NCBI GenBank assembly: GCA_038227875.1 | Contig: JBBRPR010000020.1 | Coordinates: 32,001-96,000, forward strand | Direction: 5' to 3' | Source: Planctomycetota bacterium | Lineage (GTDB): Bacteria > Planctomycetota > SZUA-567 > H5-PLA8 | DNA: 64,000 nt | Part shown: piece after piece, positions 15,841-33,769 of the stretch | Position numbering within the stretch: position 1 is the stretch's first letter | Layout of the letters: each line of letters begins with the position of its first letter | Notes under the pieces: generated by a model | Seen by the model: only the letters and a program-made list of their open reading frames with translations | What the model was told of the DNA's origin: nothing | Database searches by the model: none | Position numbers and translations under genes: made by a program

Positions 15841-17166
15841 ATGCCGGAAACGCAGGATCTCGAAACTCGAACCATTTCCAAAGTGACATGGCGGTTGATC
15901 CCGTTCATGATTTTTTTGTATCTGCTCAATTACCTCGACCGCGTCAACATCGGCGTGGCCAAGCTGCAGATGTCGAAGGATCTGAATTTCAACAACACTG
16001 TCTACAGCATCGCCGTCAGCGCGTTTTACATCGGCTACTGCGCGTTTGAAGTTCCCAGCAACCTGATCATGGACCGCGTCGGCGCGCGCATCTGGATCGC
16101 GCGCATCATGATTTCGTGGGGCCTGGTCTCCGCGGCAATGATGTTCATCACCGGGCCGTGGAGCTTTTACGGCATGCGTCTGCTGCTGGGTGCAGCCGAA
16201 GCGGGATTTTTTCCGGGGATGATTCTCTATCTTTCGTATTGGATTCCCCGTCGCCAGCGCGCACAGGCTGCGGCGTGGTTCCTCACCTCGACGGCGCTCT
16301 CCGGCGTAATCGGCAACCCGCTTGCCGGACAAATCATGCGCCTGGACGGCTACCGCAATCTTCTCGGCTGGCAGTGGCTTTTCATGATCGAAGGCCTGGT
16401 CACGGTCGTCTTCGGTTTCGTCGTCTACTATTACCTCACCGATCGTCCCGAGCACGCCACGTGGCTGGACGATGACGAGCGGACGTGGCTGTGCGATCAC
16501 ATGAACCAGGAAAACGCCGGCAACGCGCACGGACATCACAACATCGGCGTGGCATTGAAGGACAAAAAAGTGTGGTGCTTAAGTTACGTCTACGCCACCA
16601 TTCTGCTCGCGTTCTACTGCATCATTTACTGGACGCCGACGATTTTGAAGCAAGTCCTGCATACGGACGACACGACGCGAATCTCCACGCTCTCCGCGCT
16701 TCCCTTCGTCGCCGCGGTGATCGGCATGGTGCTGATCGGGCGCAATTCCGATCGCACCGGCGAGCACATGCGGCACACGGCCTACGGTTGTCTGGCCGGT
16801 TGCCTGGGAATGCTGATCGCCTGCTATTTCACCAGCTCACCGGCGCTGACGATTCTCGGGCTCTCGATTTCCGCGGCCGGAACCTTCGGCACGCTGGGGC
16901 CCTTCTGGGCGATGCCGGCGAGTTTTCTGCGCGGCGCGGCCGCCGCGGCGGGAATCGCCGCGATCAATGCGCTCGGCAATGTGGGCGGCGGTTTGCTTGG
17001 GCCGCCGGTCATTGGCAGCCTGAAAGATTCCACCGGAACCTACGTCGTCGGACTGGCGATCGTCGCCGGCGCGCTGCTCAGTGGTTACTGCCTTGCGCTG
17101 AGCCTCGACAAGCCAAACTCACCTGAGCCGATTACGCAACCGGCCAGCGCGCCCGCTACCGCTTGA
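15841..17166 (+). CDS. MFS transporter, anion:cation symporter family (tartrate/TtuB-like)
   Basis: NYLDRVNIG, FEVPSN, GARIWIARIM, GAAEAGFFPG and GWQWLFMIEG; about 12 hydrophobic segments. Confidence 0.93.
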   Translation: MPETQDLETRTISKVTWRLIPFMIFLYLLNYLDRVNIGVAKLQMSKDLNFNNTVYSIAVSAFYIGYCAFEVPSNLIMDRVGARIWIARIMISWGLVSAAMMFITGPWSFYGMRLLLGAAEAGFFPGMILYLSYWIPRRQRAQAAAWFLTSTALSGVIGNPLAGQIMRLDGYRNLLGWQWLFMIEGLVTVVFGFVVYYYLTDRPEHATWLDDDERTWLCDHMNQENAGNAHGHHNIGVALKDKKVWCLSYVYATILLAFYCIIYWTPTILKQVLHTDDTTRISTLSALPFVAAVIGMVLIGRNSDRTGEHMRHTAYGCLAGCLGMLIACYFTSSPALTILGLSISAAGTFGTLGPFWAMPASFLRGAAAAAGIAAINALGNVGGGLLGPPVIGSLKDSTGTYVVGLAIVAGALLSGYCLALSLDKPNSPEPITQPASAPATA

Positions 17167-20100
17167 ATTCCATCGTTCCAAATTTGGATGGATTGTGGAA
17201 CGAGTGGCCGACGAATGCCCAGGAGCTGGTCTCCGACGGTTGCGGCTGACGGTTGCGGCAGAGGTTTACGCCCCAGACGCCGCCCTCCTTGGCTTCCGCG
17301 CCGAGTGATTTGAGCGTCACGGACATTTCCACGCGCCACAGTCCTTTTTCCTTGCTCACCGCGGTTTGAATGTCTCCGTTCCAGAGCGGATCGCGGCCGT
17401 CTTCGTCTTCAATCGTGCCGAGACAGTTGATGGCAATGTGCTTGTACGTCTGCTTGTCGTGCTTCGTGTCGAGGAACAATTCCACCGAGTCGTCTTCCCA
17501 GCACGCGTCGTCGCGATTGATGGCGTAACCTTTCAGTTCGCCATACTTCGGCTCGTTGCACGTGAAAAGAAAATAGAGCTTCTCGCCGTCGCAGAGCGTA
17601 TTGACGTGCGTCTGCACCGGCGCGAAAATTCCCTGCGCCAGATTGACGAAGTCGGTGACTTCCGTCGCATCTTTCCAGACCGGATCGCTGCCCTTGCCGT
17701 CGATCGCCGGCCCTTTGGCCACAAGCTTGCAGATGACGCGCCGATCTTCCTCCAGCGCCTGTTTTGGGAACATCGCCCACGCCGCGTCGACTTTCTTCGC
17801 GACCCGATTTTCCTTCATCGCTACGATGTATTCCGCGATCTGGGCGCGCCAGAAATCGAAATACGCCGTTGCCTTCGATTCGTCGTACGTGCCGCCCGCT
17901 TCCGCGCCGGTGGTCTGGCCGATGTCTTCCGGATATTCGGGCAGGAATTTATTCAGCACCGTCAAAAACGCCTGCGTGTCCTTGGCGGCCGGCGTGGTCT
18001 TATCCGTGATGTTCAGCGTTTCATTCAGCAGTTCAAGGTAGCGGTGATCGTCGATGCCTTCGCGTACGTTCTCGTACTTCAACGTATTGAGGAATCCGCC
18101 CGGGCAGACGAAAATTGCCGACGACTCTTGTTCGAAAAAGACCGGCACGTTCGCATTGCAGACTTCCCACGAGTAGACCCACTGCCAGTGGCCCAAGGCT
18201 TTGCACTTCCACAGATAGTAGCCATGAGCAAAGCGCGTGAAGCCGTTGTTATAGCACCAGAAGTCCGCGATCTTTTCGACTCCGGCGAGGTAGATGATGT
18301 TGTCGGAACCCGGCCACGAATGCGTGGACATCACGTCGATCAGCGAAACCAGCGGCGCGTACGGACGGCCGAAAGCGTCCTTGTCACCCATGATCGTAAC
18401 CATGGTTTTCAGTCCGGGAACTTCGCGGGCCAGGCGCAACAGCTTGATCGTGTCGCGCCGGTTGAAATTCCAATCGTTCAATTCGGTTTCGCGCGGTTCG
18501 TCGGTGACTTGCAGGATGCCGTTGATGTCGTTCTTCTTCATCCAATCGCGGACGTCGGCCATCATCTGCTTGAGCGCCGTGTTGTACTGCGGACTGAATT
18601 CGGTGAAGCCGTGCTTCAACAAACCGTACTTCGCCAAGCCATCAACGCCGAATTTGTGGCGACCAGTCATGCCAAATTTCTTGATCGCTGCCGCTTTCAA
18701 ATCATACACATGAAAGTCGAGCGTCGCCGACTGCGTGCCGAAGTCGTAGCTCTTCGCGGTGGGCCCGTCGAACGAGAAGCAATTCAAGCCGTGTTCGGTC
18801 ATGTTCTTGCATTCGGCGTCGAGGATCTTCGATGCCGCTTCGTCGTTGGGGAACGCGTCGATCTGGTGGCTGGAGAGAGCGCCATTGTCCCACATGCCGC
18901 ACTCGGTTTTCGTCTTCGGCAGATCGAATGGATAGACCGTGATCGTCAGTGCAATCTTGGCCGCCTCGCCGTTGGCAGGCGTGAGCGTGATCGTGCCCTT
19001 GTATTCTCCGGCTGGTGTTCCCGCCGGAACGTGCAGCGTCATCCAATACTGCGTGTTCCAATCCTTCTTCAGCTCTGCGTCAAAGTACGGATAAAGCACC
19101 GTCGGCAGCGGCTCGTACCAGAAGCCGTCGACCTTTTGCGGGAAGTATTTGACGATGAACTTCTCCAGCGTTTCTGGCGCGAGTTTCTTGTCGCCCGCAG
19201 CGAGTTCCGAAATCGCGAGCTTGGCCACGCCCAGATCCTTGAGCGGCCGCACCGCGAACGTCACCGGTTCAAATTCGTTGGCCGCGCACGCGACTTTCAA
19301 TCCGTCGGGGATGAGCTCCTCGTTGGTCGGCTGCGAATTCGGATAAACCCGGTACTGGTAATTGCGCGCGAACAACTGGTAACCGCGCTGCTGGTCCGCG
19401 GCATTCGCAGCGACGCCATTCTTCGGCGCTTCGTGATCGCGGACGCGTGCCTGGTTGAGCCACAATCCGTACGCCTCTTCCGCGTAGCAGCATTCAACGA
19501 ACGCGCGACCCTCCTCGGCCATGGCCTTGGGATACACCCACAGCGCGTGGACACCACAATTCTCGAACTTCAGCGCGAGCTTGCCATCCGCAGCTTTCGT
19601 TTCGAAGCGATGACCTTCGAAATACTTGCGGTGGTATTGATCGAAGAGCGAACGAGCAGGGTTGTAGAAAAGATTTGCGCCGTAGTATTGATTGTCGAAG
19701 GTGTAGAAATTCTCCGGCGTAACCTTCACATCCACCAGCGGAGCCTCTCCGGCCAGGATCCGATACGACGAACTGCGCACGCCCTGCCAACTCGTGCCGA
19801 ACGCCACAGCGTGAACTTCGTAATCGCCATCAGGAACTTTGGTCGTGAACGCCAGATTTGTGCCAACAATGTCTGAACCCAACAGCGGGAACTTTGGCTG
19901 CCAGTTTTGTACGCCAATGTCCGTGCCACTCACGCCGTAAGTCTTGTCGTTTTCGAAAATGGACTTTGGATTGATCGGGATCGCACCCGGCGTGGTCGAT
20001 CCGAACGTGAACAGTTGCAGCTTCGACGCGTCGGTGAACACTTTCTGCGCGGCAACCTTGCCGAATTTCAAATTGGCCGGATCGCCCTGGCGTGGAATCG

Positions 20101-20593
20101 AGACGCGGAGTTTCTTGAGTTTCGAGAGCTCCAATTTCTCAGCGCCGCCATCCTTCGCGACCCACCAGATCGGAAACGCGACGGTGGTCGATCCGGGATC
20201 CAGTGGCATGGCGAACGTCGCGGCGCCACCGTCGGTGCCCAGTATCAGCTTGGCCTGCACGCGCACCTTGCCGGCGTTCTGTACGTCGAAGCGGAGCAGA
20301 TCGGATTTCGAGAGATCCTTTTCGCCACTCCACAATTCGATCGTTGGCCCCTCCTCACGCGCAGGGAACGTCGCGGAGAGCCAGCCTTCGCCGACCTCCA
20401 CTTTGGTTTGCGGATGCAGCGATTTTGCCGTGGAGTTTTGTTTGTCGGTGTAATCCGTCAGAACTACCTGCTCCAGCACCGGGCGCTTGAGCAGCAAGCG
20501 TTCGGGGGTGGCTTCAACGGCGAATGCGGAGCAGAGGAAGCCCTGTAAAGCAAGAACCAGACAAGTGATTGCTGCCTTGATGGAGTGCGGCAT
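17156..20593 (-). CDS. Large secreted glycoside hydrolase-like protein (GH123/DUF4091-like core with a C-terminal CBM9-like module)
   Basis: Signal peptide from the ATG at 20593; NEFEPVTFAV, PAGTPAGEYKG, VTDEP, KYENVREGIDDHRY; C-terminal PAIDG...WEDDSVELFLD...WRVEMSV...WGVNLCR. Confidence 0.75.
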   Translation of the reverse strand: MPHSIKAAITCLVLALQGFLCSAFAVEATPERLLLKRPVLEQVVLTDYTDKQNSTAKSLHPQTKVEVGEGWLSATFPAREEGPTIELWSGEKDLSKSDLLRFDVQNAGKVRVQAKLILGTDGGAATFAMPLDPGSTTVAFPIWWVAKDGGAEKLELSKLKKLRVSIPRQGDPANLKFGKVAAQKVFTDASKLQLFTFGSTTPGAIPINPKSIFENDKTYGVSGTDIGVQNWQPKFPLLGSDIVGTNLAFTTKVPDGDYEVHAVAFGTSWQGVRSSSYRILAGEAPLVDVKVTPENFYTFDNQYYGANLFYNPARSLFDQYHRKYFEGHRFETKAADGKLALKFENCGVHALWVYPKAMAEEGRAFVECCYAEEAYGLWLNQARVRDHEAPKNGVAANAADQQRGYQLFARNYQYRVYPNSQPTNEELIPDGLKVACAANEFEPVTFAVRPLKDLGVAKLAISELAAGDKKLAPETLEKFIVKYFPQKVDGFWYEPLPTVLYPYFDAELKKDWNTQYWMTLHVPAGTPAGEYKGTITLTPANGEAAKIALTITVYPFDLPKTKTECGMWDNGALSSHQIDAFPNDEAASKILDAECKNMTEHGLNCFSFDGPTAKSYDFGTQSATLDFHVYDLKAAAIKKFGMTGRHKFGVDGLAKYGLLKHGFTEFSPQYNTALKQMMADVRDWMKKNDINGILQVTDEPRETELNDWNFNRRDTIKLLRLAREVPGLKTMVTIMGDKDAFGRPYAPLVSLIDVMSTHSWPGSDNIIYLAGVEKIADFWCYNNGFTRFAHGYYLWKCKALGHWQWVYSWEVCNANVPVFFEQESSAIFVCPGGFLNTLKYENVREGIDDHRYLELLNETLNITDKTTPAAKDTQAFLTVLNKFLPEYPEDIGQTTGAEAGGTYDESKATAYFDFWRAQIAEYIVAMKENRVAKKVDAAWAMFPKQALEEDRRVICKLVAKGPAIDGKGSDPVWKDATEVTDFVNLAQGIFAPVQTHVNTLCDGEKLYFLFTCNEPKYGELKGYAINRDDACWEDDSVELFLDTKHDKQTYKHIAINCLGTIEDEDGRDPLWNGDIQTAVSKEKGLWRVEMSVTLKSLGAEAKEGGVWGVNLCRNRQPQPSETSSWAFVGHSFHNPSKFGTMEFKR

Positions 20594-20784
20594 GAGTGCG
20601 GGTGACTCCTGTTTTAGCTTTGAGCTACACGTGATCAACGGAAGTGTATACACTGGAAAAGTCATAACAGTTTAACAATTGCGGGGTGGTACTTAGTACG
20701 CCACAAAATGGAATTCGGCTCTTTTTTCCCGAATGATTTTGAGGGCATCGGGCCTCGTAACTGTTAAGGATCCCGGAGGCGTTA

Positions 20785-21396
20785 GTGGGTGTCGGGTCCG
20801 AGTACTTGAACGACACGGCTCTGGCTAAGCGGATGCTGGCCGGAGACGAGCGTGCGTTTGAGGATTTCTTCGCAGCGTATTTTCCCGGGCTGTTCCGGTT
20901 CGCGCTTTTCCGCGTCGAAAGCGATGCCGGCGCGGCGGAGGAAATTACGCAGGCTGCGCTGTGCGCGGCGATGCTGAAGATCGAAAGCTACCGGGGCGAA
21001 GCGCCGCTGTTTTCGTGGCTGTGTACGTTCTGTCGTCACGAAATTTCGGCCTACTACACCCGCATGCAGCGTTCGCCGGCCTCGCTGGGCATTGCCGACG
21101 ACGAGGCCGTGCAGGCGGTGCTCGATTCGCTTCAGGCGGCGGAATACCACGGCCCGGAGCAGACGCTGCGCCGCAAGGAGCTGGCGGAACTGGTGCGTCA
21201 GGCGCTCGACCGCCTGCCTCACCATTACGGTAACGCGTTGGAATGGAAGTACGTCGAGAATCTGTCGGTGAACGAAATCGCGGAACGTCTGGGCATGGGG
21301 CCCAAGGCCGCGGAATCGTTGTTAATGCGCGCGCGCACGGCTTTTCGCGAATGTTTCGCGGCCGTCTGTGGCGGGCAGTCTAATCTGGAAACGTAG
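20785..21396 (+). CDS. ECF sigma-70 factor (FecR-paired)
   Basis: AEEITQAAL...SYRGEAPLFSWLCTFCR and region 4 LSVNEIAERLG...SLLMRAR; followed by fecR. Confidence 0.92.
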   Translation: MGVGSEYLNDTALAKRMLAGDERAFEDFFAAYFPGLFRFALFRVESDAGAAEEITQAALCAAMLKIESYRGEAPLFSWLCTFCRHEISAYYTRMQRSPASLGIADDEAVQAVLDSLQAAEYHGPEQTLRRKELAELVRQALDRLPHHYGNALEWKYVENLSVNEIAERLGMGPKAAESLLMRARTAFRECFAAVCGGQSNLET

Positions 21397-21399
21397 CGA

Positions 21400-21431
21400 T
21401 CTCCCTTAGTGACCCGAGTCATTAAGGGAGA
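21400..21431 (+). other. 14-bp stem-loop between the ECF sigma and fecR (possible mRNA stability or attenuation element)
   Basis: TCTCCCTTAGTGAC-CCGA-GTCATTAAGGGAGA (one G-U pair); no U-tract; the 3' arm includes a purine-rich AAGGGAG. Confidence 0.5.
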
Positions 21432-21443
21432 ACTGGGAATCAA

Positions 21444-22448
21444 ATGGCCAATCGAGCCCGTGCGAACGATACACCGGAAGGGCAGGATCCCCTGGCGGAT
21501 TTAATCCGCTCTGCGGGCCGCCGTCCGCCCATCGCGCCGGGCCGCGAGCAGCGCGTCCACAAAGCGGTGATGGAGGAGTGGAAGCGCGTGGTGCGCAAGC
21601 GCCGCCTCCGGCGCCTCTCGATTTTCATTCCCTCCGGACTGGTGGCGGCGGCGGTGCTGTTTGCCGTGGCCTCGCACCTCCTCAAGGCAGCCGCGCCCAA
21701 ACCGCAAACGGTCGCCACGATTGAATTTCTCGATGGCACACTCAACGAAAGCCGCACCAATTCTCTCCGCGCCGTGAAACTCGGCGACGCCATCACCACC
21801 GACAGCACGCTCGAAACCACGGCCACCGGCCGCGCGTCGTTGCGCCTGGCGGACGGACAGTCTTTGCGCCTGGATGTGGGCACGAAGTTGCGCATCCTCT
21901 CGAGCGGCTTTCATCTCGAAACCGGCGCCGTATACGTGGATTCGGCCAAGCCTTCAGGCTCGAAAGCCAAGGAGTCGGTGCGCATCGAGACCGATTACGC
22001 GGAAATCCGCGACGTCGGTACGCAATTTGAAGTTCGCTTGATCGAAGCCGCACGGCCGCTCTCCGTCCGCGTGCGCGAAGGGCGCGTGGATTTCAAGCGC
22101 GGCACCGACAAGGCCTCGGTCGGCGCCGGTGAGGAACTGACCTCCGCGCCCACGGGTCAGTTTGTGGCTCGCAAAATTTCCCTCGCCGATCCGCTCTGGG
22201 ATTGGGCTTCGGCCTGCGCGCCAGCGGTGCATCTCGATGGTCTGTCGTTGGAATTCGCGGTGACGTGGATCTGCCGCGAGCAAGGCTGGCAATTCAGCTA
22301 CGAAACCGAAGCGGCAAAGGCGCTGGCGAAGAAAACAATTCTGCATGGTTCGCTTGATGGCATTCCGCCACGCCGGGCGCTCGACGCCGTGCTGCCCGCA
22401 TCGGGATTGACCTATTCGTTCGATGGCACCTCAGTCCACATCAAATAA
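21444..22448 (+). CDS. FecR-family anti-sigma/signal transducer
   Basis: Single TM helix; FecR domain (LRLADGQSLRLDVGT...LETGAVYVD...RDVGTQFEV...VRVREGRV) plus a C-terminal FecR_C-like domain (LDGLSLE...WICREQG...LDAVLPASGL). Confidence 0.9.
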   Translation: MANRARANDTPEGQDPLADLIRSAGRRPPIAPGREQRVHKAVMEEWKRVVRKRRLRRLSIFIPSGLVAAAVLFAVASHLLKAAAPKPQTVATIEFLDGTLNESRTNSLRAVKLGDAITTDSTLETTATGRASLRLADGQSLRLDVGTKLRILSSGFHLETGAVYVDSAKPSGSKAKESVRIETDYAEIRDVGTQFEVRLIEAARPLSVRVREGRVDFKRGTDKASVGAGEELTSAPTGQFVARKISLADPLWDWASACAPAVHLDGLSLEFAVTWICREQGWQFSYETEAAKALAKKTILHGSLDGIPPRRALDAVLPASGLTYSFDGTSVHIK

Positions 22449-22466
22449 TTCAAAAGGAGCGATCCG

Positions 22467-24677
22467 GTGAACTTCCGCGCTCGATTTGCTGCCTGCATGC
22501 TGGCGGTCGCAATGATCGCCTCCGCCGCTCTTGCCGCCGATGCTCCCTCGAAGCGCTATGCCGGCCGAACGCTGGAAAGTGCATTGGAAGACCTGCGTAG
22601 CCAGGGCGTGAAGTTGATTTATAGCTCGGCGCTGGTCACGCCGGAGATGAAAGTCGCCGCCGAACCCGAAGGCAAGACGCCGCGTGAACTGCTGGAAAAA
22701 ATGGTCGAAGCGAGCGGCTTGCACGTCGCCGCCGGACCCAACGACACGCTCGTCGTCGTCAAGGACCTCCCGACGCAGACCGCCGGTGTGTCGAATGTCG
22801 GCGTGGTCAGCTTCGTCAAAATTGTATCCGACAAAATCGAAGACGTTTCCAGCATGGACGCGTGGAAGAAATCGTTCATCAAAGATGGCATGACCGACGA
22901 GCAGAAAGCATTGGCGGTATGGCAGACGGTGGTGAAGTTCCGACACCAGACGTCTCCGCCCAATGAATTCCTGGGCGAGGGCAATGTTCACGACCCGATC
23001 AAGACATTCAACGTCTACGGTTATGGCATGTGCTGCTGCGCGTCGTCGAACATCGAGGCGCTGGCGCGCTACGCCGGACTGAAGGCGCAGGGCCGCGGGC
23101 TCAGCGGACATAGTGTCCCGGAAGTTTTCTGGGACGGCGCGTGGCATCTGCTCGACGGATCATTGATCACGTATTTTCCGAAGCCCGATAAAAAAATCGC
23201 GAGCGTCGACGAGATCGTCGAGAGCATTGCCGACTGGTTCACGAAAAATCCCGGCATGAAAGGCAAAGACGCCAAGGAACTGATGGCGTTCATGCGCGGC
23301 CAGGGGTGGAAGAAGGGACCGGTCGTCCTGTCTAATTGCCCCTTCTATGGTGAGAACGGTTGGCTTCCGGCGGCCACGCACGGCTGGTATTCGACGATCG
23401 GGGAATACGACGGCGCCAACAAATTCATCTATGAGTACACGTATTCGCAGGGCTATCAGGTGAACGTTCAATTGCGAGAAGGCGAGAAGCTGACGCGCAA
23501 TTGGTTCAATAAGGGACTCCACATCAATCAGGAAGGCGATTCGCCCATCAACGAAAAAGTCGGCGAAGGCGATATGAAGTACGCCGTGGAGTACGGCGAT
23601 CTTGCGCCCGGACGCATTGGCAACGGTTCTCTGGAATATGACCTGCCGCTGGCTTCCGGGGCTTATCAAACGGCAGCATTGGTCGCGGAAAATCTCGTCA
23701 GCAAATCCGAGGCGCGCGCCGGTCCGGCGGTACAAGTGAAGGACGCCGCAAAGCCGGGCGTGCTGGTCGTCCGCATGCCCAGCAGCTACGTTTTTCTCGG
23801 TGGCGCGCTGAGCTACAACGCGGTCGTGGGGCAGGGCGGGGAAGTGACCGTCTCCTTCTCCGACAACAACGGACTGGCGTGGACGGAAGTGTCCAAAGCT
23901 GGCGTCTCAGGTCCGATGAGCGTGGAGCTGAAGCCGAGGATTCTGCGCCGCTACGATTACCGCCTGAAGTTCGAACTAAAAGGCAGCGGTACGGGACTCG
24001 ATGCCGTGAAGATCGTCAACGATATCCAGAACTCCCAGCGCGCCCTGCCGGCCCTGGCTCAAGGAAAGAACACGATCACCTTCAGTGCCGGCGCAGCAGA
24101 AGGCACGATCACCGTCGAGCCGAATCTGAACTACGAGCACAAAGACAAGAATGTTTTCGTCACGGATTTCACCAAGAACATGACGGGATTCAATCCGACC
24201 GATTTTTTCATGGCCGGCGCCAAAGCGCAGATCACCTTTCCAGTTGAAACGCCGGGTGAGATGACGCGCATCCGCATGGGTTGCCAATACCGCGCGCGCA
24301 GCGTGAGCGAAGGTTGGGATTTTCAGGTCTCATTCGACGACGGCAAGACGTTCAGGACCATCGACAAGGCCGAAGGCCCGGTCGCCGGCTTCTGCAAGTA
24401 CACGACCTTCGCCGAGATCCCGCCCGGGACAAAGAGTGCCCTGATCCGCTATTCCGGAACGCAGAACAACACCTGCGGCCTGTTCGGCGTCACGATTAAC
24501 GCCGACTACAAGGAACCGCACGGCGGCTTCCGGCCCGTGAAGGTCACGTATGTCTGGGAAGAGAACGGCGCCGAGAAAAAGGATGTACACGTCGCCACGA
24601 AAGAAAACGAAACATACACGATCGATTGTGCAACCAAGCCAACGATGAAATCCTTGATCGTCGAATTGGCGAACTAA
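22467..24677 (+). CDS. Secreted protein: STN-like signalling domain fused to a transglutaminase-like Cys-His-Asp core and beta-rich domains
   Basis: AAAGGAG RBS; signal peptide; GRTLESALEDL...LIYSS...ELLEKMVEASGL (STN-like); YGMCCC, GHSVPEVFWDGAWHLLD (transglutaminase-core pattern). Confidence 0.8.
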   Translation: MNFRARFAACMLAVAMIASAALAADAPSKRYAGRTLESALEDLRSQGVKLIYSSALVTPEMKVAAEPEGKTPRELLEKMVEASGLHVAAGPNDTLVVVKDLPTQTAGVSNVGVVSFVKIVSDKIEDVSSMDAWKKSFIKDGMTDEQKALAVWQTVVKFRHQTSPPNEFLGEGNVHDPIKTFNVYGYGMCCCASSNIEALARYAGLKAQGRGLSGHSVPEVFWDGAWHLLDGSLITYFPKPDKKIASVDEIVESIADWFTKNPGMKGKDAKELMAFMRGQGWKKGPVVLSNCPFYGENGWLPAATHGWYSTIGEYDGANKFIYEYTYSQGYQVNVQLREGEKLTRNWFNKGLHINQEGDSPINEKVGEGDMKYAVEYGDLAPGRIGNGSLEYDLPLASGAYQTAALVAENLVSKSEARAGPAVQVKDAAKPGVLVVRMPSSYVFLGGALSYNAVVGQGGEVTVSFSDNNGLAWTEVSKAGVSGPMSVELKPRILRRYDYRLKFELKGSGTGLDAVKIVNDIQNSQRALPALAQGKNTITFSAGAAEGTITVEPNLNYEHKDKNVFVTDFTKNMTGFNPTDFFMAGAKAQITFPVETPGEMTRIRMGCQYRARSVSEGWDFQVSFDDGKTFRTIDKAEGPVAGFCKYTTFAEIPPGTKSALIRYSGTQNNTCGLFGVTINADYKEPHGGFRPVKVTYVWEENGAEKKDVHVATKENETYTIDCATKPTMKSLIVELAN

Positions 24678-24683
24678 TCCGAC

Positions 24684-26879
24684 CTACTTCAGAAAGTCCG
24701 GCATATACCCGTCGCTCTTGCCGCCCTGATCTTCCATCTGCTTCTTCCGTTCGCGTTCCTTGCGTGCGGCTTCTTCCTTGCGAAGTTGCTTGTACGAGCC
24801 GCTCGGGATGCGGTCTTCCAGCGGCGTGCCGTCGTCGCGTCTGCCTTTTCCGGCGACGACGATGATCGCCGGTTCGGTCATGAACTTTTCCTGCTCGACG
24901 TTGATGTGATTGCAGCGCGTCTGGCAGAGCCCGCAGCCGACGCATTTATCGTGAACGACAACCGGCGCGAGGAAGCCGGTGCCGTCGATCGGAATTCCCT
25001 GCTCGTCGACTTCGGCGCGGACGCGGTTGAATTCGATCGCGTTGTATCCGGCGGCGGTGCATTCATCGACGCAGAGCTGGCAGGCCTGTTTGCCGGCGAT
25101 GGGCAGGCAAGTCTGCATGTTCAAAATCGCGAGGCCCAGTCGCGCTTCACGTTTTTCGACCAGCGGAATCGCGCGGATCGCACCCGTCGGACAGACCTGG
25201 CCGCAATTGTTGCAGCTCGTCTCGCAGCCCGCGAAATTCGGGTTGATCTCCGGCGTCCACAATCCTTCCAGTCCTTGTTTGAAGCCGACCGGTTGCAGCA
25301 CTTTACTTGGGCAGGCCTTGAAACATTCGCCGCAGCGAATGCAGGCCTCAAGGAACTGTGCCTCCGGCAAACTTCCCGGCGGACGAACCGGCACGGGTCG
25401 CGACGGATCGTCGATCCCCGCGCCAAACGCGTTGCGCATCCCGAAGACCGTCAGCAGCGAGACGCCGGTTCCTGCCAGAAAGCCGCGTCGATTCAGCGCC
25501 ACTTCGCTCACGGGCGGATCGTTGACGGGTTTGAGGTCGGAGATGTTCCAGCGTTCTACAAATTTGATCGCGTGGGTCGGGCAGACACCGCCGCAGGATT
25601 GGCAGAGCGTGCAATCGGCCGTCCGCGTAGTGAAGTCGGCCTTGATTGCGTCGAAGGGGCAGATCTCTACGCATTTGTTGCAATGAATACAGCTCGATTC
25701 CACTTTCCGTTCGGAGACGCGGAAGAGATTGAAGACGGAGAAGACGGCGCCCGACGGACAGACATAGCGGCACCAGAATCGCTTCCGCAACAAACCGAGC
25801 CCGAGTACGGCAAGAAACAACACGATCGAAACAATTTGCCCGAAGTTGATCGCGGGGACCTGGTGCCAGCCGCGCATAAAGCCCAATTGGAAGGGCTCTA
25901 GGATGTAGAGCATGCCGCGCGTGATCACGGGAATCGCAGCGACGAAGCCGGAGAGCAGCACGCCGCAGAGTGCCGAGACGATCACGCCGGTGAGGATGTA
26001 ATACTTGAGGTGGACCCACCAGCCTTCGCCTTTGACTTTGAAGACGTTGACGCGCTTGCCGATCGCCCAGTCGAAGACGTCGATCAGTGTGCCGAGCGGA
26101 CAGAGGTAGCCGCAGAATCCGCGCGGGAAGATCAGGCAGACGGCGAGAATTCCCAGCGCCCAGCTCAGCGACCATTCCCACGTGCGCGAACAGATTGCCG
26201 TCGAGATGGAGACGAGCGGGTCGATGATCAGGAAGATCTCCGCCGGCACCTTCTCTTTGCGTTCGCGGTCGTCGGTGTAGTGAGAGATCCAGAGCTGCGC
26301 CTGCTCATCCGGATTGTGGACGATGGCGAGCACCAGGTCGGTCGGCGTGGTCTTCTCGGCCGTTGCGATTTCGCGGAGATCTCGGCCGACCCAATCGGGG
26401 TGCGGCCCGTACTTGCCGAGGATCACGTTGCCGCGCGCGCCGCGCCGCGCAAAGTCAGCGTCGATCTCCGCATGGATGCGCGTGGCATCGGCCGCGTCGT
26501 TCAGGCGGCCCAGCATCATGTCCTTGCCGCCGTCACGCGCCCACGCAGGCACGAACATCTGCTCCACGGTTGTACGCGCGTCAGGTTGTGCGTTGTAGGG
26601 CCAGCAGACATAGAAAAAGAGCACGAGGAAGAGCACGAAGCACACCGCTTGAACGCCGCGGCGCAACGGGGCCGATTGCGTAACCGGCCCAATCTTCTTG
26701 ATGGCGCGGCGGATCAGGCCGGGTTTGCCTTTGAGCGGATCGGAGAAGAACGCTGCGGGAAGAATCTTTTGCGCGGCGCGTTCAAACAAGCCAGGCGGCT
26801 TGGGTTCCGTGCCCTTTTTGGGGCGGCGAAGGAACGGGAGGAAGTGATTGAGATTCATGCGCATCCCACCCGGGTTCAC
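24684..26879 (-). CDS. Membrane polyferredoxin (NapH/MauN-like domain fused to a NapG/MauM-like 4Fe-4S domain)
   Basis: RGFCGYLCPLG and RFWCRYVCPSG motifs, multiple CxxCxxCxxxCP clusters, internal NRRGFL and VRPPGS. Confidence 0.9.
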   Translation of the reverse strand: MNPGGMRMNLNHFLPFLRRPKKGTEPKPPGLFERAAQKILPAAFFSDPLKGKPGLIRRAIKKIGPVTQSAPLRRGVQAVCFVLFLVLFFYVCWPYNAQPDARTTVEQMFVPAWARDGGKDMMLGRLNDAADATRIHAEIDADFARRGARGNVILGKYGPHPDWVGRDLREIATAEKTTPTDLVLAIVHNPDEQAQLWISHYTDDRERKEKVPAEIFLIIDPLVSISTAICSRTWEWSLSWALGILAVCLIFPRGFCGYLCPLGTLIDVFDWAIGKRVNVFKVKGEGWWVHLKYYILTGVIVSALCGVLLSGFVAAIPVITRGMLYILEPFQLGFMRGWHQVPAINFGQIVSIVLFLAVLGLGLLRKRFWCRYVCPSGAVFSVFNLFRVSERKVESSCIHCNKCVEICPFDAIKADFTTRTADCTLCQSCGGVCPTHAIKFVERWNISDLKPVNDPPVSEVALNRRGFLAGTGVSLLTVFGMRNAFGAGIDDPSRPVPVRPPGSLPEAQFLEACIRCGECFKACPSKVLQPVGFKQGLEGLWTPEINPNFAGCETSCNNCGQVCPTGAIRAIPLVEKREARLGLAILNMQTCLPIAGKQACQLCVDECTAAGYNAIEFNRVRAEVDEQGIPIDGTGFLAPVVVHDKCVGCGLCQTRCNHINVEQEKFMTEPAIIVVAGKGRRDDGTPLEDRIPSGSYKQLRKEEAARKERERKKQMEDQGGKSDGYMPDFLK

Positions 26880-26898
26880 TGCCGCTTAAAAGACTTCG

Positions 26899-27909
26899 TT
26901 ACTTTGCGTCCTTGGACTTCTCCGGCTTGCCCGCGACTGCTTTTGCAGCGCTGGCAAGGGTGAGACGCGCAACGCGGTTGGCTTGCTGCGCGACCCAGAT
27001 ATTTCCGTCTGGCCCCGTGCCAATACAGAACGGTTGGGAGTTCGGTGTCGGCAAGGCGATCTCCGTGATCTTGCCGTCGGGAGTAATGCGCGCGATTTTA
27101 CCCAGTTTGAATTCGCAGAAGTATACATTTCCATCCGTTCCGCTCGTAATTCCCAGCGGCTGGGCGTTGGCGGAGGGCAGGGGATACTCGGTGGCCTCAC
27201 CTTTCATGCTCAGGCGGCCGATGGCGTTGACCTTGTCGGCGGTGAACCAGATGTTGCCATCGGCGCCGAAGGCCAGTTCGCGGCCGCCATTCTTCACGGG
27301 GAACTCGGTGATCTTGCCCTCCGGCGTGATCTGCCCGATGTTCGGCTTGTCCCATTCCGTGAACCAGAGATTGCCATCCGGTCCAGCGACGATGCAGTAC
27401 GGCTTGCACGCGGCCGTCGGGATGGGAAATTCCGTGATCTCGCCCTTGGTCGTAATGCGCGCGATTTTGTTGCCGGCCATCTCGGTGAACCAGAGATTCT
27501 TGTCCGGCCCGGCCGTGATCTCGCGCGGCCAGCATACTGCGGTGGGGAGTTTGAACGCGCCGTTGAATTCTCCCGTGGGCGTCATGCGGCGGATCATGTT
27601 CTCATCGCGCGACGAGAAATAGAGATTGCCGTCGGAACCGGCCGCGATGCCTTGAAGCACGCCGGCTTCCTTGGCGGGAACGGCGAATTCAGTGAACTCA
27701 CCTTTCGGCGTGAGTTTGAGAATCTTGTGCTTCAACACTTCCGTTACCCACAGGTTGCCGTCGGGCCCAACCGTGAGCGCCTGCGGGCGATGGCCTTCCG
27801 TTGAGAGCGGAAATTCGACGATGTCGTCGCTGGCGCGCAACGCGGCGCTGAAAAGTACTGCGATAAGTGAGACCAGCACTGCCAGATGAATTTTCATTCG
27901 CATCTCCAA
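26899..27909 (-). CDS. Secreted Vgb-family (virginiamycin B lyase-like) beta-propeller
   Basis: Signal peptide and about 7 repeats of P..I..GPDGNLWFTE...IARIT..G.ITEF. Confidence 0.85.
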   Translation of the reverse strand: MEMRMKIHLAVLVSLIAVLFSAALRASDDIVEFPLSTEGHRPQALTVGPDGNLWVTEVLKHKILKLTPKGEFTEFAVPAKEAGVLQGIAAGSDGNLYFSSRDENMIRRMTPTGEFNGAFKLPTAVCWPREITAGPDKNLWFTEMAGNKIARITTKGEITEFPIPTAACKPYCIVAGPDGNLWFTEWDKPNIGQITPEGKITEFPVKNGGRELAFGADGNIWFTADKVNAIGRLSMKGEATEYPLPSANAQPLGITSGTDGNVYFCEFKLGKIARITPDGKITEIALPTPNSQPFCIGTGPDGNIWVAQQANRVARLTLASAAKAVAGKPEKSKDAK

Positions 27910-27921
27910 TTTGGAAGAAAT

Positions 27922-28995
27922 CTATTTCACGCCCGTCGAGAGCGCTTTGGCGCAGGCGTTGACGATGGCGTTCGACGTGACCGTGGCCGACGAATAGGTG
28001 TCGACTCCCTTGACCGTCTGCTTGTCGATGATTTTCTGGGGAATGACCGTCAGCGATGCGTAGCACTGATGTTCGGTCTGCTGGGTCACGACCACGCTGT
28101 CGATCTTGTGGCCCTTCGTTACGACGTCCACCGAGACATTGCCGGAGTAGCCCATGCTGGTTCCGGAATACTTGCCGTCGGCGATGCGCTTGAGGTCGAG
28201 CAGCTCGAAAAGTTTGATCGCGTCGATGGACGCGTGGGCCTGATCCTGATTCCATTTCAGGCGTCCGGCGGCGGTCTGCGTGTCTTTCTGGACGACTTTC
28301 AGCACCTTTTCGTAGAAGTCGATTGCTTCCTTGTAACGGCCCGCGAGTTTCAGGCAGTCGCCGGCGACAAAGTATCCGGCGTCCGGACAACTCATCGCCT
28401 TGCCTTCCGCCATTTTCAGCGCGGTGTCGATGTCGCCAATGTCGGCCCACAATTTAATCACGCCGCCCTGGCGGGTGTTGTCGTAGCCGACCTTGTCGAG
28501 AACTTCTTTGGCCATGTCCTTGTTGCCCAGCCGGAAGTAGCAGTCGGCGAGCAGTTCGTCGTTGGACTCCGCCTTGCGAAACCAGAACGCGGCGCGCGCG
28601 TAGTCGGCGAAAAAGTTGTGATAACATTCGCCCAGCGCGAACATGGTTCGTTTCAGTTTCTCGGGATCACTCTTATTGACATTCAAAACCTGGTGGAGCA
28701 GTTTCACGCCTTCTTTCCAGCGCGGCGGATTGGGATTGATCACCGTCCAGATAAATTCCTTCAGATCCTTCTGAGCGTTGCGGCCTTTCGGATCGCCCCA
28801 GGTTAAATCGAGCGTCTGCGGATAATTCGGCGTGACGGATGCGAACCAATCGGGCGGAGCCTGGCCGGCCTTCTGGATGATCGCGTCGATCTCCGCGCGG
28901 GTGTGCGAATTGGCGGCGGGTTGCGCCGGCTTGGCGGTTTCCGCGGCGGGCAGCGATGCAAGCATCAGCAGCAGCGCTACCGGCAGAATCTTCAT
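27922..28995 (-). CDS. Secreted TPR + FMN-binding domain protein (paralog 2)
   Basis: Signal peptide MKILPVALLLMLASLPAA; TPR-like helices; C-terminal DGKYSG..GYSGNVSVDV...GVDTYSSATVTS FMN_bind fold. Confidence 0.85.
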   Translation of the reverse strand: MKILPVALLLMLASLPAAETAKPAQPAANSHTRAEIDAIIQKAGQAPPDWFASVTPNYPQTLDLTWGDPKGRNAQKDLKEFIWTVINPNPPRWKEGVKLLHQVLNVNKSDPEKLKRTMFALGECYHNFFADYARAAFWFRKAESNDELLADCYFRLGNKDMAKEVLDKVGYDNTRQGGVIKLWADIGDIDTALKMAEGKAMSCPDAGYFVAGDCLKLAGRYKEAIDFYEKVLKVVQKDTQTAAGRLKWNQDQAHASIDAIKLFELLDLKRIADGKYSGTSMGYSGNVSVDVVTKGHKIDSVVVTQQTEHQCYASLTVIPQKIIDKQTVKGVDTYSSATVTSNAIVNACAKALSTGVK

Positions 28996-29110
28996 GAGTC
29001 GAGCGCGAGAATTCACTGATATTACCCTCTCCGCAGGTCCGAATTTGGTTCGCACCAGAGAGTGGTTTGCGCACGTGAAAAGGGTGCGGCGATTTTCTCG
29101 AAATTGACGA

Positions 29111-30193
29111 CTATTTCATACCCGTGGCCAACGCCTTGGCGCAGGCGTTAATGATCGCTTCCGACGTGATGGTCGCCGAGGTGTACGTGTCGACGCCCTT
29201 GACGCCTTGTTTGAGGATGATCTGTTTCGGCGTCTCCGTCAGCGAGCCGTAGAACTGTTTTTCGGTGTGCTGCGTCACTTTCACGTCGTCGATTTTGGCG
29301 CCTTTAACGGAAAGTTCCACGGTGACCGGACCGGTGTAGCCGGTGCTGCTGCTGGTATATTTTCCGTCGGGAACGCGCTTGAGGTCGAGTGTGTCGAAGA
29401 CCTTGATCGCGTCGATGCTGGCCTGCGCGCGCGCTTTACTCTGCTTGAAATCGCGGCCTGCTTTGGACGGATCGCTGGTCAGGACTTTTTGGAAATACTT
29501 CAGCGCATCGGCGTAGCGGCCAGTCGTGCGGCAGGCTTCGCCGGCCATCAGCCAGGCAATGTCCGGCTTGTCGAAATCGGCTTTCACTTCCGCTTCCTTG
29601 ATTGCCTTGTCGAATTCGCCCAGATCCGCCCACAGCTTGATCAGCGAGCCGTGGCGCGTGTCGTCGTTGCCACAGCGGCCGAGGATTTCCTTGGCGTACG
29701 CGGGGCAACCGAGCTTCCAGTAACAGAACGCCAATTCTTCCGTGTCCGTATCGCCTTTCTTCTGCCACCAGTACGCGGCGCGGGCGTAATCGAAGAGGCA
29801 ATTGGCGTAGAGATGTGCCATCTGGCCCTGCATGTTGGCGACTTTCGCCGCGTCTTTCTCGTTCACGGCAATGACATGGGCGGCAAACTTCACGCCCTCT
29901 TTCCATTTGCCCGCGTTTTCGTTGATCACGCTCCAGAAATACTGACCGACATTCTTCTGCGGATCCCACGGCGCGCCCTTGGGTGGCGGGGTCAGGGTCA
30001 GATCCAACGTCTTTGGAAAATTCAGGGGCGTCGCCTCCCACCAATCCGGCGGCGTGGTGCCTTGCTTCTGGATAAGCGCGTCGACTTCGGGTTTGGTGCG
30101 TACCGGCGGAGCAGTCTCGCCTGCGTAAATCAGCCCGGTAGCGCCGAGCACCACAGCAATGAGCACGCACGTTGACGGTCCGAAATTTTGCAC
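29111..30193 (-). CDS. Secreted TPR + FMN-binding domain protein (paralog 1); start uncertain
   Basis: Clearly homologous to 27922-28995 (PPDW, KEGVK, DYARAA, LIKLWAD); C-terminal DGKY..GYTGPVTVEL...GVDTYTSATITS. Confidence 0.85.
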   Translation of the reverse strand: MQNFGPSTCVLIAVVLGATGLIYAGETAPPVRTKPEVDALIQKQGTTPPDWWEATPLNFPKTLDLTLTPPPKGAPWDPQKNVGQYFWSVINENAGKWKEGVKFAAHVIAVNEKDAAKVANMQGQMAHLYANCLFDYARAAYWWQKKGDTDTEELAFCYWKLGCPAYAKEILGRCGNDDTRHGSLIKLWADLGEFDKAIKEAEVKADFDKPDIAWLMAGEACRTTGRYADALKYFQKVLTSDPSKAGRDFKQSKARAQASIDAIKVFDTLDLKRVPDGKYTSSSTGYTGPVTVELSVKGAKIDDVKVTQHTEKQFYGSLTETPKQIILKQGVKGVDTYTSATITSEAIINACAKALATGMK

Positions 30194-30221
30194 GTTGAAT
30201 CGTACTCCGTTGAGAATCGAT

Positions 30222-30249
30222 GACCTTGCCGCCAATGGGCGGCAAGGTC
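30222..30249. repeat. 28-bp GACCT-N18-AGGTC palindrome, copy 1
   Basis: GACCT TGCCGCC AATG GGCGGCA AGGTC. Confidence 0.8.
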
Positions 30250-31816: not shown

Positions 31817-33022
31817 TTAGTCCTGCTTTTCAATCCGGACGATGCGGCGGTGTTCTTCCAAGACCCATTCGACTTTAACTTTGTCACCCTTATTCAACTT
31901 TTCAAGGGTGCGAATCATGTCTTTGTCCAGATTTCCTTCCTTCGGGTTATCTTTGGTGGGAACCCAGCGCGGGGTGTACTTCTCGTTTTCGCCACCGTGG
32001 TCGCGAATCCGAATCCACTCGCCGCCATCGCCCTTCTCGGTCACTTCTCCCACGATGGAACCGGTCTTGTGATGGTGTTCGGTGGAGTCCGGGGGGCTCC
32101 AGACGATCTGCATTTTTGTGACGCGCGGGTACTCCTGCATGACCCAGGCGATCTGCACGCGCGTGCCCTTGCTCAACTTGTGAATCGCTTCGAGCATCTC
32201 TTTGTCGACGCCGTCGTGCGTTCGCGGGGTGAAGCGGCGCGCATCCTTGCCTTCGTCGCGAAGTTCGAAAAAGTTGTCGCCCTTGTTGGTCACAAGGCCG
32301 AAGGCGATGCCGCCCTTTTCGCCGGCACGAAGCGTCGTACCCCATCCGGGCAGCTCCACAGCGCCTTCCTGAACGCTGACATCCATCGTCCGGCGCCGAG
32401 CCTGCTCGGTCTTGAGTTCATTGCCTTCGCCGCTGATGGCGACGGTGAACTTCGTTCCCGTTACGGCGACTGTTCCGGAATCGGTGCGAACGGCAAAGGT
32501 ACCAATGTGACGGTCGACCTGGCAGGTTACGCTGCCGGACTCGAGCAGCACCTGCTCGGCCTTGTCCTTGCCTTCATTCACGAGCGAACTGTTGGCGGCG
32601 ACGTCGAGATTGCAGTAACCGCCCAGCGCGACCTTCTTTGGCGTGGCGTCGGTCTTGATCCGCTCGCCGCGCGCCCAGGCATTGGGGCTGGGCTTAAAGT
32701 CGTTCTCCGGCTTCGGCGGCGTGTAGGGTGGGTCACCCCACTGCAAACCGGGCTCATTGGTCTTGGGCGTTTCCTTGGCCACCTCGACCGGCGGCGCGGG
32801 CATGGCAAATTTCCAGACCGCCACGCCAATCAGAATCGCGGCCGCGACACTCGCGCCGCCCGCCAGCCAGTAGAAGCGGCGGCGTTCGCGTTCGACCCGT
32901 TTCATGATCCGGCTGGCGAGATTCGGCGGCGCTTCCTTGCCGAGCGCTTCGCGCAGGAGCGTGTCGATCAGGCGGTCTTTGGGATCCGCCAAATCCGAAG
33001 GATCGTTGTCGTCGGCGCTCAT
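31817..33022 (-). CDS. FecR-domain anti-sigma factor with two C-terminal ~75-aa repeats
   Basis: TM helix; LESGSVTCQV...FAVRTDSGTVAVTGTKFTV...VSVQEGAVEL; duplicated G.VT.KGD...TPR...DK.M......L.KG..V...W module; start overlaps the ECF stop (ATGA). Confidence 0.85.
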   Translation of the reverse strand: MSADDNDPSDLADPKDRLIDTLLREALGKEAPPNLASRIMKRVERERRRFYWLAGGASVAAAILIGVAVWKFAMPAPPVEVAKETPKTNEPGLQWGDPPYTPPKPENDFKPSPNAWARGERIKTDATPKKVALGGYCNLDVAANSSLVNEGKDKAEQVLLESGSVTCQVDRHIGTFAVRTDSGTVAVTGTKFTVAISGEGNELKTEQARRRTMDVSVQEGAVELPGWGTTLRAGEKGGIAFGLVTNKGDNFFELRDEGKDARRFTPRTHDGVDKEMLEAIHKLSKGTRVQIAWVMQEYPRVTKMQIVWSPPDSTEHHHKTGSIVGEVTEKGDGGEWIRIRDHGGENEKYTPRWVPTKDNPKEGNLDKDMIRTLEKLNKGDKVKVEWVLEEHRRIVRIEKQD

Positions 33023-33558: not shown

Positions 33559-33658
33559 CACAGCTCCCGAGTATCCAAGAGGAAGTGGTGTAATTTGTAG
33601 TAAAGGGTGAGGAAAAACCTGCGAATTTCTTGGGATCGGAGGAGGATCGTGTCGTTTT

Positions 33659-33686: not shown

Positions 33687-33769
33687 CCACAGGTACAACA
33701 GTCCTGAGTAATTGCGAAGAATCGCCCCACGAGTTACATCGGCTTTTGAGAGCAATTGAGGATTTAGTG

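Follow-up and report, generated by a model that had tools for sequence, protein, structure and literature searches.

A Planctomycetota sigma-FecR cassette whose third protein carries an STN-like module on a transglutaminase-like body: candidate cell-surface signalling without a TonB-dependent receptor

What is understood of cell-surface signalling (CSS) comes almost wholly from the TonB-dependent iron transducers of Proteobacteria. How, then, might an extracytoplasmic function (ECF) sigma factor and a FecR-type anti-sigma factor be informed of events outside the cell when the protein encoded beside them is not an outer-membrane receptor? This question is raised by a three-gene cassette in a 64,000-nucleotide (nt) stretch of a Planctomycetota genome (contig JBBRPR010000020.1; the whole stretch is called the window here), in which an ECF sigma gene and a fecR gene are followed by a gene for a 736-amino-acid (aa) protein that joins an N-terminal, STN-like module to a transglutaminase-like core. 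We put at roughly 0.6 the probability that this cassette is a CSS-type unit that works without a TonB-dependent outer-membrane transducer, and the 736-aa protein probably acts as the sensor in place of the outer-membrane receptor.

An initial reading of the letters alone (the sequence-only reading) had seen an ECF sigma gene, fecR and a third gene in one tight operon, and the coordinates, spacing and Pfam calls bear this out. All three open reading frames (ORFs) lie on the plus strand (Table 1; the third at 22467-24677), separated by 47 nt and then 18 nt, with a GGAG-type, Shine-Dalgarno-like motif 5' of each start. The downstream gene (24684-26879), encoding a multi-4Fe-4S membrane protein, is convergent, and the operon therefore stops at gene 3 as a self-contained three-gene unit. 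The product of the first ORF matches Sigma70_r4_2 (E 9.8e-11), Sigma70_ECF (E 6e-06) and Sigma70_r2 (E 1.5e-05) in Pfam, as well as TIGR02937 (E 1.4e-20). The FecR-type protein begins in the cytoplasm (about aa 1-55), continues through one hydrophobic span (about aa 58-80, as read from the sequence) and has a FecR/CJM domain (aa 122-215) and a C-terminal STN-like subdomain (aa 255-334), so that both the sigma gene and the layout of the anti-sigma factor are those of FecIRA-type systems. Pfam STN matches the C-terminal subdomain weakly (E 0.35) and Pfam FecR_C does not match the protein at E <= 1; its last 80 aa align with full FecR relatives, and among 50 FecR sequences L300 and G302 hardly vary. 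The C-terminal subdomain of PupR has been reported to be an STN domain in structure (PMC7186176).

The third protein has no usable Pfam or NCBIfam assignment, STN (PF07660) and Transglut_core (PF01841) both being unmatched at E <= 1. As neither domain is called, the assignments given here rest on fold comparison, profile-profile comparison and relatives. An AlphaFold2 model built from 46 sequences has a mean predicted local distance difference test (pLDDT) score of 92.5 and a predicted template modelling (TM) score of 0.82, with pLDDT about 90 over the module and low confidence only at the signal peptide and the linker. The N-terminus, MNFRARFAACMLAVAMIASAALA/AD, reads as a signal peptide, the stretch GRTLESALEDLRSQGVKLIYSS...DTLVVVK occupies aa 32-100 (22560-22766), and the protein ends in SLIVELAN. 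Pfam Plug and TonB_dep_Rec have no match on it, and the confident model contains no barrel. Each of these features, including the lack of a plug or barrel pattern and of a terminal aromatic residue, had been noted from the letters and stands. DTLVVV was considered as a TonB box and rejected: TLVVVK (22746-22763, aa 94-99, preceded by D93) is the closing strand of the STN fold, and its Thr is not conserved in homologs.

Comparison of the model with about 48,000 Protein Data Bank (PDB) representatives by VIA-align identified the PupB signalling domain (6ovk_B) as the best match to aa 28-106, with 76 of 81 residues aligned at 2.2 Å root-mean-square deviation (rmsd) and a Z of 9.5. Folded alone, the module reached a pLDDT of 72.9, lower than in the full model, and matched 6ovk_B (Z 7.8), FecA (Z 7.3), the PupR STN subdomain (Z 7.2) and PupA (Z 6.7); since Z values of 7-9.5 lie in the range that VIA-align flags as a possible common arrangement, the STN assignment is not rested on them alone. 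The matches to the isolated module are mostly the signalling domains of PupB, FecA, PupA, FpvA and FoxA, the PupR STN subdomain, a Bacteroidetes anti-sigma C-terminal domain and secretin N0 domains, and also baseplate-hub domains, and the top Foldseek rows are PupB, GspD N0, FecA and FpvA. CSS signalling domains are closer than secretin N0 domains by a small margin. Alongside these fold comparisons, hhalign of 18 modules against 50 FecR C-terminal subdomains gave a probability of 95.2% (E 2.8e-8 over 71 columns), and four of 13 STN-bearing homologs have sub-threshold Pfam STN matches in the right place and of nearly full length (E 0.015-0.15; 12-15.5 bits, the cut-off being 28.4). The module thus falls short of the PF07660 sequence cut-off and has the two beta-alpha-beta repeats of the STN/N0 fold. 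The earlier proposal of an STN-like N-terminal domain therefore holds for the fold and the profile comparison, and fails for Pfam, which finds no STN in the window protein even at E <= 1. A separate observation concerns a Bacteroides methylesterase, BT1017: its N-terminal domain (residues 21-98 of chain A in PDB 6goc) superposes on model aa 30-101 with a Z of 8.3, an rmsd of 1.9 Å and 69 residues aligned, about level with the CSS signalling domains, and BT1017 may be another enzyme with an STN-like domain.

In the body of the protein, the core (aa ~126-253) is closest to the putative cysteine protease 3isr_A (Z 10.3), followed by TglA (9crn, Z 9.5), 3kd4 (Z 9.3), LapG (4fgo, Z 9.1, rmsd 3.1 Å, 121 aligned) and factor XIII (4kty, Z 8.9). 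The candidate triad consists of C189 (23031), H215 (23109) and D230 (23154), C189 being the first residue of the CCC at 23031-23039 (C189-C191); the pattern C189-x25-H215-x14-D230 is invariant in family alignment A1, and Cys, His and Asp are kept in 195 of the 202 relatives that cover the site. Three relatives rise above the 23-bit cut-off of PF01841 (P0261, 30.7 bits; P0263, 26.7; P0269, 25.6), and the first two align with the window protein at BLASTP E values of 2e-44 and 3e-41 with C, H and D retained. The residues, fold and triad of the transglutaminase-like core claimed by the sequence-only reading are accordingly supported, in that the order and spacing of Cys, His and Asp on a papain-like fold are those of the transglutaminase superfamily; the expected Pfam call was not obtained, as the window protein itself stays below the PF01841 cut-off. 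Beyond the core, aa ~385-682 form two jelly rolls that match a reelin repeat (7lyu, Z 10.7) and carbohydrate-binding modules (CBMs; TmCBM61, CBM29, a porphyran-binding CBM, CBM6 and a family-16 module, Z 8.2-9.5), and for which Foldseek returns reelin, BcsB and neuropilin b1b2, with weak Pfam matches to Reelin_subrepeat-B and BNR. With the full model, Foldseek listed mostly jelly-roll matches of very low TM score; domains were assigned from VIA-align. Five residues of the C-terminal domain (C721, P725, M727, S729 and E733) are invariant in alignment A1.

The module and the sigma-FecR pair travel together. We assembled 77 loci from species-representative genomes, added the paralogs of the window's own genome, and scored six-frame ORFs with the window proteins and small local hidden Markov models. 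Excluding the distant paralogs L007-L012, and any core match weaker than E 1e-100, reduced the set to 93 family ORFs at 83 loci. Seven of these ORFs carry the STN module, in six loci: the window, L016 (two tandem copies), L017, L018, L080 and L086. All five loci with readable upstream sequence have, directly 5', genes for an ECF sigma factor and for a FecR that includes the C-terminal subdomain; L017 lies at a contig edge. For the converse we took one STN-less, unfused gene per locus (68 loci; six truncated genes excluded) and removed 15 with less than 2 kb of upstream sequence. In the 2.6-kb regions upstream of the 53 genes that remained there are 125 ORFs of at least 110 aa; Pfam detected no sigma factor and no FecR among them at E <= 1e-5, which answers a check suggested at the outset, namely whether homologs without STN also lack the ECF/FecR pair. 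The same picture emerged when the module profile was run over 401 sampled genomes of the phylum: six matched, all in the window's own family (five of its eight other genomes among them) and none among 392 elsewhere, every match lying within an open frame of 742-766 aa. In all five other same-family genomes sigma-FecR lies directly upstream, with two STN-bearing copies in tandem in one of them; the species-representative loci and the 401-genome sample may share genomes, so the synteny counts are not independent. The STN-core fusion is therefore conserved and taxonomically narrow, and not the one-off that would have undone the original idea.

Other STN-like sequences in the window's own genome are differently placed. 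None of its four Plug-domain (TonB-dependent) genes coincides with an STN match, and ten other STN-matched stretches that were checked comprise seven of secretin type, a 948-aa FecR-domain protein, a 715-aa protein in which Pfam finds no further domain and a WD40-like protein. The 948-aa protein is encoded, on the minus strand, after an ECF sigma gene (locus L098, G000:C18:1500-10500; ORFs 4199-7042 and 7177-7728), and its weak STN match lies at the extreme C-terminus.

Contact between the module and FecR was addressed by complex prediction with FecR 88-334 (alignment of 50) and the module (alignment of 18), in three runs and three controls. The score was 0.76 in all three runs versus 0.00 for the best control, with 66-69 contacts, at least 97% of them in common, and partner pLDDT of at least 81; because a solved complex of the same kind exists (6OVK), this pass may reflect the model's memory of it, and it speaks for likeness, not for binding. 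The pass mark, calibrated on solved complexes (116 of 157) and mismatched pairs (2 of 215), is only rough here, as custom alignments were used. With these reservations an interface between the FecR C-terminal domain and the STN module, as anticipated from the letters, is predicted. It involves FecR residues L264, L269, L294, K297-S303, 306-308, 311-312, 314-316 and 318-321 and gene 3 residues 40-41, 44, 49-56, 88, 90-92, 94, 96-100 and 102. The FecR strand TILHG is predicted to pair with the module strand LIYSS, in which, among 18 modules, Y52 and S53, together with L56 beyond it, are invariant or nearly so, and helix 1 and strand 2 of the module would face the FecR strand and helix. In its structural elements the predicted STN:STN beta-sheet contact agrees with PupR:PupB and FoxR:FoxA. 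For PupR:PupB, the signalling domain is described as placing helix 1 and strand 2 against a strand and helix of the STN subdomain (PMC7186176), and in the account of FoxR:FoxA, FoxR S292-V294 pairs with FoxA L80-A82, FoxR-G293 and the strand around FoxA-S81 being needed for binding (PMC11637429). Like FoxA-S81 and FoxR-G293, the cassette has a conserved Ser on the module strand and a conserved Gly on the FecR strand.

A further line of evidence comes from proteins in which the core is joined covalently to signalling partners. The N-terminal, membrane and juxtamembrane parts of FecR are fused to the core in P0087, P0089, P0094, P0107, P0126, P0130 and L019, and a full FecR including the STN subdomain in P0122; an ECF sigma factor is fused to the core through a membrane span in P0121, L020 and the own-genome paralog L004, and a Ser/Thr kinase in P0124. 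In P0087-type fusions the core begins a few residues past DPxWDW, the end motif of the FecR juxtamembrane domain, at the place where the window FecR has its STN subdomain; the covalent link thus stands for exactly the two STN domains. P0124 (PQD) and P0126 (GPD) are without the Cys and His of the triad, so the core there can bind only, not catalyse. L004 (G000:C45:15244-20382; minus-strand ORF 1495-4353) encodes a single 952-aa protein composed of ECF sigma, a hydrophobic linker and a transglutaminase-like/CBM-like core, and is by its predicted domains a one-polypeptide, membrane-tethered sigma factor. At L087, a Ser/Thr kinase ORF (2033-3088) stops three bases before a frame (3092-6130) with the family core and a 374-aa N-terminal extension, a putative split or read-through form of the P0124-type kinase::core fusion.

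A rapidly built maximum-likelihood tree of the core alone (71 rows, LG+G4, SH-aLRT support only, midpoint root) shows STN-bearing, FecR-fused, sigma-fused and plain members interleaved. One group with 94% support unites three STN-bearing rows with the sigma fusion L004 and the FecR fusion P0122; four STN-bearing rows and two plain ones form the sister group of the five P0094-type fusions. STN-bearing rows require at least three changes across the starred branches. The approximately unbiased (AU) test rejects the STN-bearing rows as one clade (log-likelihood difference 234.6, p-AU 1.2e-7); the group was set by architecture before the tree was made, and the test followed inspection of the tree. 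Evidently the coupling between the core and ECF signalling was rearranged on several occasions.

The core itself, of about 630 aa, represents a very large family, the greater part of which is without the STN module. Of 7998 candidates scored in a word-indexed search, 1298 proteins reached E <= 1e-3, and an exhaustive search of representatives at 50% identity found 2186 at E <= 1e-3, 848 at E <= 1e-10 and 157 at E <= 1e-30. By source names and record titles the hosts are mostly Planctomycetota, with Armatimonadota, Verrucomicrobiota, Abditibacteriaceae and others. Most of the best 120 proteins of the word search are 640-690 aa long, cover about 85% of the query and start at aa ~108 (GVVSxVKVLSDK); 12 of them have 95-100% query cover with about 80 extra N-terminal residues, and four have a FecR domain instead. 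The STN-core architecture occurs in 13 database proteins, and a word-indexed search with the module alone (aa 22-108) found six proteins, all of that architecture and from no other family. Six close paralogs are present in the window's own 9.3-Mb genome. The family has no Pfam match in these scans, and its profile finds nothing significant among PDB sequences (best E 0.035). Frequent neighbours of the STN-less relatives are CBM6/35, glycoside hydrolase family 10 (GH10), GH123-like, beta-helix, PIG-L deacetylase and BNR_2 proteins. Tandem arrays of three to five or more paralogs were seen at L016 (2541-12182), L081 (592-10135) and L018 (4964-11394). In L016 and L018 the array is led by sigma-FecR and one or two STN-bearing copies, followed by tandem STN-less paralogs, an arrangement that suggests a sensor copy controlling effector copies, comparable to the control that a TonB-dependent transducer exerts over its own transport function.

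On the reading that we favour, the 736-aa protein would be exported by its signal peptide and its STN module would dock on the C-terminal STN subdomain of FecR, the sheet being completed by pairing of K49-LIYSSAL-56 with FecR K297-TILHGS-303. The docked module would probably shield FecR from proteolysis at rest, as has been described for FoxA/FoxR, where the docked module protects the FecR-type partner (PMC11637429). The body, with its transglutaminase-like domain and two CBM-like jelly rolls, would engage an extracytoplasmic polymer, a glycan or a glycan-linked peptide; engagement would alter the contact with FecR, leading to degradation of FecR, ECF sigma factor release and transcription of the cassette and, where present, of the tandem STN-less paralogs. 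A glycan or glycoconjugate ligand is weakly suggested by the carbohydrate-active neighbours of the STN-less relatives and by the divergent gene 5' of the window cassette (17156-20665, minus strand), whose 1169-aa product is CBM9/GH123-like by Pfam. The original proposal, that an STN module grafted onto a Cys-His-Asp protein triggers the ECF response, accordingly stands in its architecture, its conservation and a predicted contact; for binding and signalling, as for the shielding, ligand, proteolytic steps and regulon, we offer an inference from these.

Several observations weigh against this reading. The triad is kept nearly throughout the family, the window protein included, which by residue conservation would suit an enzyme no less well than a pure sensor. 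In the phylum as sampled, a single family has the STN-bearing form, and, as stated, the counts that tie it to sigma-FecR may draw in part on the same genomes. The STN assignment has its own weaknesses: Pfam STN is silent on the third protein and sub-threshold in the four homologs, the module profile finds nothing significant among PDB sequences (best E 0.23), Foldseek returns no row at E <= 1e-3 for the isolated module, the VIA-align scores lie in the flagged range, and the predicted complex may echo 6OVK. A promoter motif sought 5' of five sigma genes was not common to all five; L016 and L018 share one upstream block, and L080 and L086 another. A search of RNA runs for the cassette stretch listed none that contains it, and metagenomes are the sole source of the organism.

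The protein could instead be cargo, an enzyme under sigma/FecR control whose STN-like module serves oligomerisation or docking to a secretin or another part of the envelope, with FecR sensing by other means. STN/N0 domains are generic interaction modules that also occur in secretins, of which the own genome has several, the carbohydrate-active neighbourhoods (CBM6/35, GH10, GH123-like, beta-helix, PIG-L) would suit a family of degradative enzymes, and FecR binding of the module is itself a prediction. What makes this account unlikely in our view is that the module is found only where sigma-FecR lies directly upstream and is absent elsewhere, and that FecR::core fusions replace exactly the STN pair; the small margin by which the module is nearer to CSS signalling domains than to secretin N0, and an interface that passes its controls, point the same way. 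That the family consists mostly of secreted proteins that stand alone and lack a neighbouring FecR, so that FecR is not the general substrate of the family, tells against another thought, in which the Cys-His-Asp domain is a tethered site-1 protease, held in place by the STN module, that itself cuts the periplasmic domain of FecR. Such a role would make sense of the retained triad (195 of 202 relatives and the window protein) and of fold matches that include periplasmic or putative cysteine proteases (3isr, 3kd4 and LapG), and docking as predicted would set the enzyme beside the FecR C-terminus. Yet the kinase fusion P0124 and the FecR fusion P0126 have lost Cys and His, so catalysis is not needed for a signalling role there, the sigma::core fusions have no anti-sigma factor to cut, and the known CSS systems are reported to use Prc/CtpA and RseP (PMC10392083); we consider a tethered protease quite improbable.

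An artefact, either a chimeric junction between STN and core near 22765 or a mis-called start, is scarcely credible. The source assembly consists of 176 contigs and is 88% complete, which gave the worry some substance. It is removed by a 292-nt contig from a run of another study, which equals 22604-22895 with seven differences and crosses the STN/core junction, together with the recurrence of the architecture (743-766 aa) in five other family genomes, five further loci (L016-L018, L080 and L086) and the 13 database proteins. A 7414-nt contig, assembled separately from a possible source run, also spans the junction, covering 20600-24800 with zero differences, and the model is confident on both sides of the linker.

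Beyond signalling without a TonB-dependent transducer, the fusions permit a broader and more tentative idea, which we regard as possible and no better than that: the ~630-aa core may serve Planctomycetota and their neighbours as a general extracytoplasmic input module, wired time and again, and interchangeably, to sigma factors, to FecR (by fusion or by an STN:STN link) and to Ser/Thr kinases, with its catalytic state on an envelope or extracellular polymer as the signal, and the STN pair may have arisen by fission of a FecR::core fusion. If true, this would amount to an 'enzyme-as-sensor' form of CSS that needs neither TonB nor an outer-membrane receptor.

The features of the cassette are collected in Table 1. 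Genes flanking the STN-bearing cassettes are not conserved from locus to locus. Prc is a site-1 protease of Pseudomonas CSS; at L018 alone, a divergent gene for a Prc-like tail-specific protease (Peptidase_S41 and PDZ; L018:991-3225, minus strand) adjoins the sigma gene. Within the window, the minus-strand genes at 24684-30235 encode a 731-aa membrane protein with many 4Fe-4S motifs, then a Vgb-lyase-like beta-propeller and two paralogous TPR and FMN_bind proteins, and these genes may form an extracytoplasmic electron-transfer cluster. Signalling genes abound in the window. Two Ser/Thr kinases (13125-15731 and 43497-46268) have extracytoplasmic-type C-terminal domains, one LRR and one FGE-sulfatase-like; a second ECF sigma gene (4078-4794) lies beside a gene for a 720-aa zf-HC2 anti-sigma factor (1886-4048), and a Sigma70_r2 ORF is found at 33019-33780.

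Table 1. Features of the sigma-FecR-STN cassette (positions within the window)
Feature	Position	Strand	Basis or remark
Intergenic region, presumed cassette promoter region	20666..20784	.	Common to the divergent 1169-aa gene; gene layout and sequence
ECF sigma factor, 203 aa (region 2 aa 29-96; region 4 aa 135-185)	20785..21396	+	Pfam, NCBIfam
FecR-type anti-sigma factor, 334 aa	21444..22448	+	Pfam PF04773, E 5.2e-11
FecR C-terminal STN-like subdomain	22206..22445	+	Holds strand K297-TILHGS-303, predicted partner of the gene 3 module
Signal peptide, aa 1-24 (...SAALA/AD)	22467..22538	+	Sequence reading; modelled helix 3-21, low pLDDT; equivalent N-termini in relatives
STN/N0-fold signalling-domain-like module, aa 28-100, with invariant L-[IV]-Y-S-S strand	22548..22766	+	Fold, profile, relatives
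Disordered linker, aa 101-109	22767..22793	+	pLDDT < 50; length and sequence variable in alignment
Transglutaminase-like (papain-type) core with helical insert, aa 110-383	22794..23615	+	Fold, relatives, triad
Pair of beta-sandwich domains of jelly-roll type (CBM / reelin-subrepeat-like; ~aa 384-525 and 533-682) carrying BNR-like SxDxG motifs	23616..24512	+	
C-terminal beta domain ending ...CxxKPxMKSxxxEL, no aromatic terminal residue, stop codon included	24513..24677	+	Strands 691-734 in model

What the cassette may offer is twofold. The series from FecR::core through FecR-STN::core to FecR-STN with a separate STN-core provides ready constructs for probing the contribution of the STN:STN contact to signalling. 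In addition, envelope or polymer sensing would be the first plausible role for part of a large family (2186 representative clusters at E <= 1e-3) that these scans leave without a Pfam match.

Set beside known systems, the cassette resembles FecIRA, PupIRB and FoxIRA in that genes for an ECF sigma factor and a FecR-type protein adjoin the gene for a protein that starts with an STN-fold domain. Unlike FecIRA-type systems, its partner protein has a soluble transglutaminase-like and CBM-like body in place of a TonB box, plug and 22-strand barrel, no iron-related gene is present in the window locus, and the Pfam STN and FecR_C matches are below threshold. The cassette therefore lacks the TonB-dependent transducer that defines FecIRA, and keeps the sigma factor, the FecR and, as predicted, the docking through STN domains. 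LapG is a periplasmic transglutaminase-like cysteine protease held by the inner-membrane receptor LapD, and the cassette is similar in that an inner-membrane signalling protein is proposed to bind, through its periplasmic domain, a periplasmic Cys-His-Asp protein of transglutaminase fold. The two differ in that LapG belongs to another sequence family and has no STN, LapD is a receptor for cyclic di-GMP, and the output is adhesin cleavage, not transcription.

The sequence-only reading knew of no described system with this layout, and this is only partly upheld. VreA of the PUMA3 system of Pseudomonas aeruginosa (VreA-VreI-VreR) is described as a barrel-less, mostly soluble periplasmic protein with an N-terminal STN-like domain thought to contact the sigma regulator; its second domain is modelled as TolA/TonB-like, and VreA is proposed to relay a signal from an outer-membrane partner (PMC2729926). 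A barrel-less STN partner is thus not unprecedented. VreA and the window protein share the STN-like N-terminal part; in place of the TolA/TonB-like second half, the window protein has the core and jelly rolls. VreA is small, whereas the window module sits on a 630-aa Cys-His-Asp/CBM-like body that is also found fused to FecR, sigma factors and a kinase. For the remainder, among open-access papers and preprints we found no description of STN on a transglutaminase-like/CBM-like protein, of the fusion series or of the core family, and the STN-transglutaminase layout may be new. The RsgI/SigI systems of Clostridium thermocellum (PMC10328401) likewise employ carbohydrate-binding or enzyme-like modules as input to an anti-sigma factor, and the FecR::core fusions share that layout. 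Unlike the cassette, RsgI/SigI systems are Gram-positive and of SigI type, with the sensor covalently part of the anti-sigma factor, whereas the window sensor would be a separate protein coupled through STN:STN contact. Compared with the TonB-dependent transducers, the cassette would move the docking of STN on STN from an outer-membrane receptor onto a soluble, enzyme-like protein.

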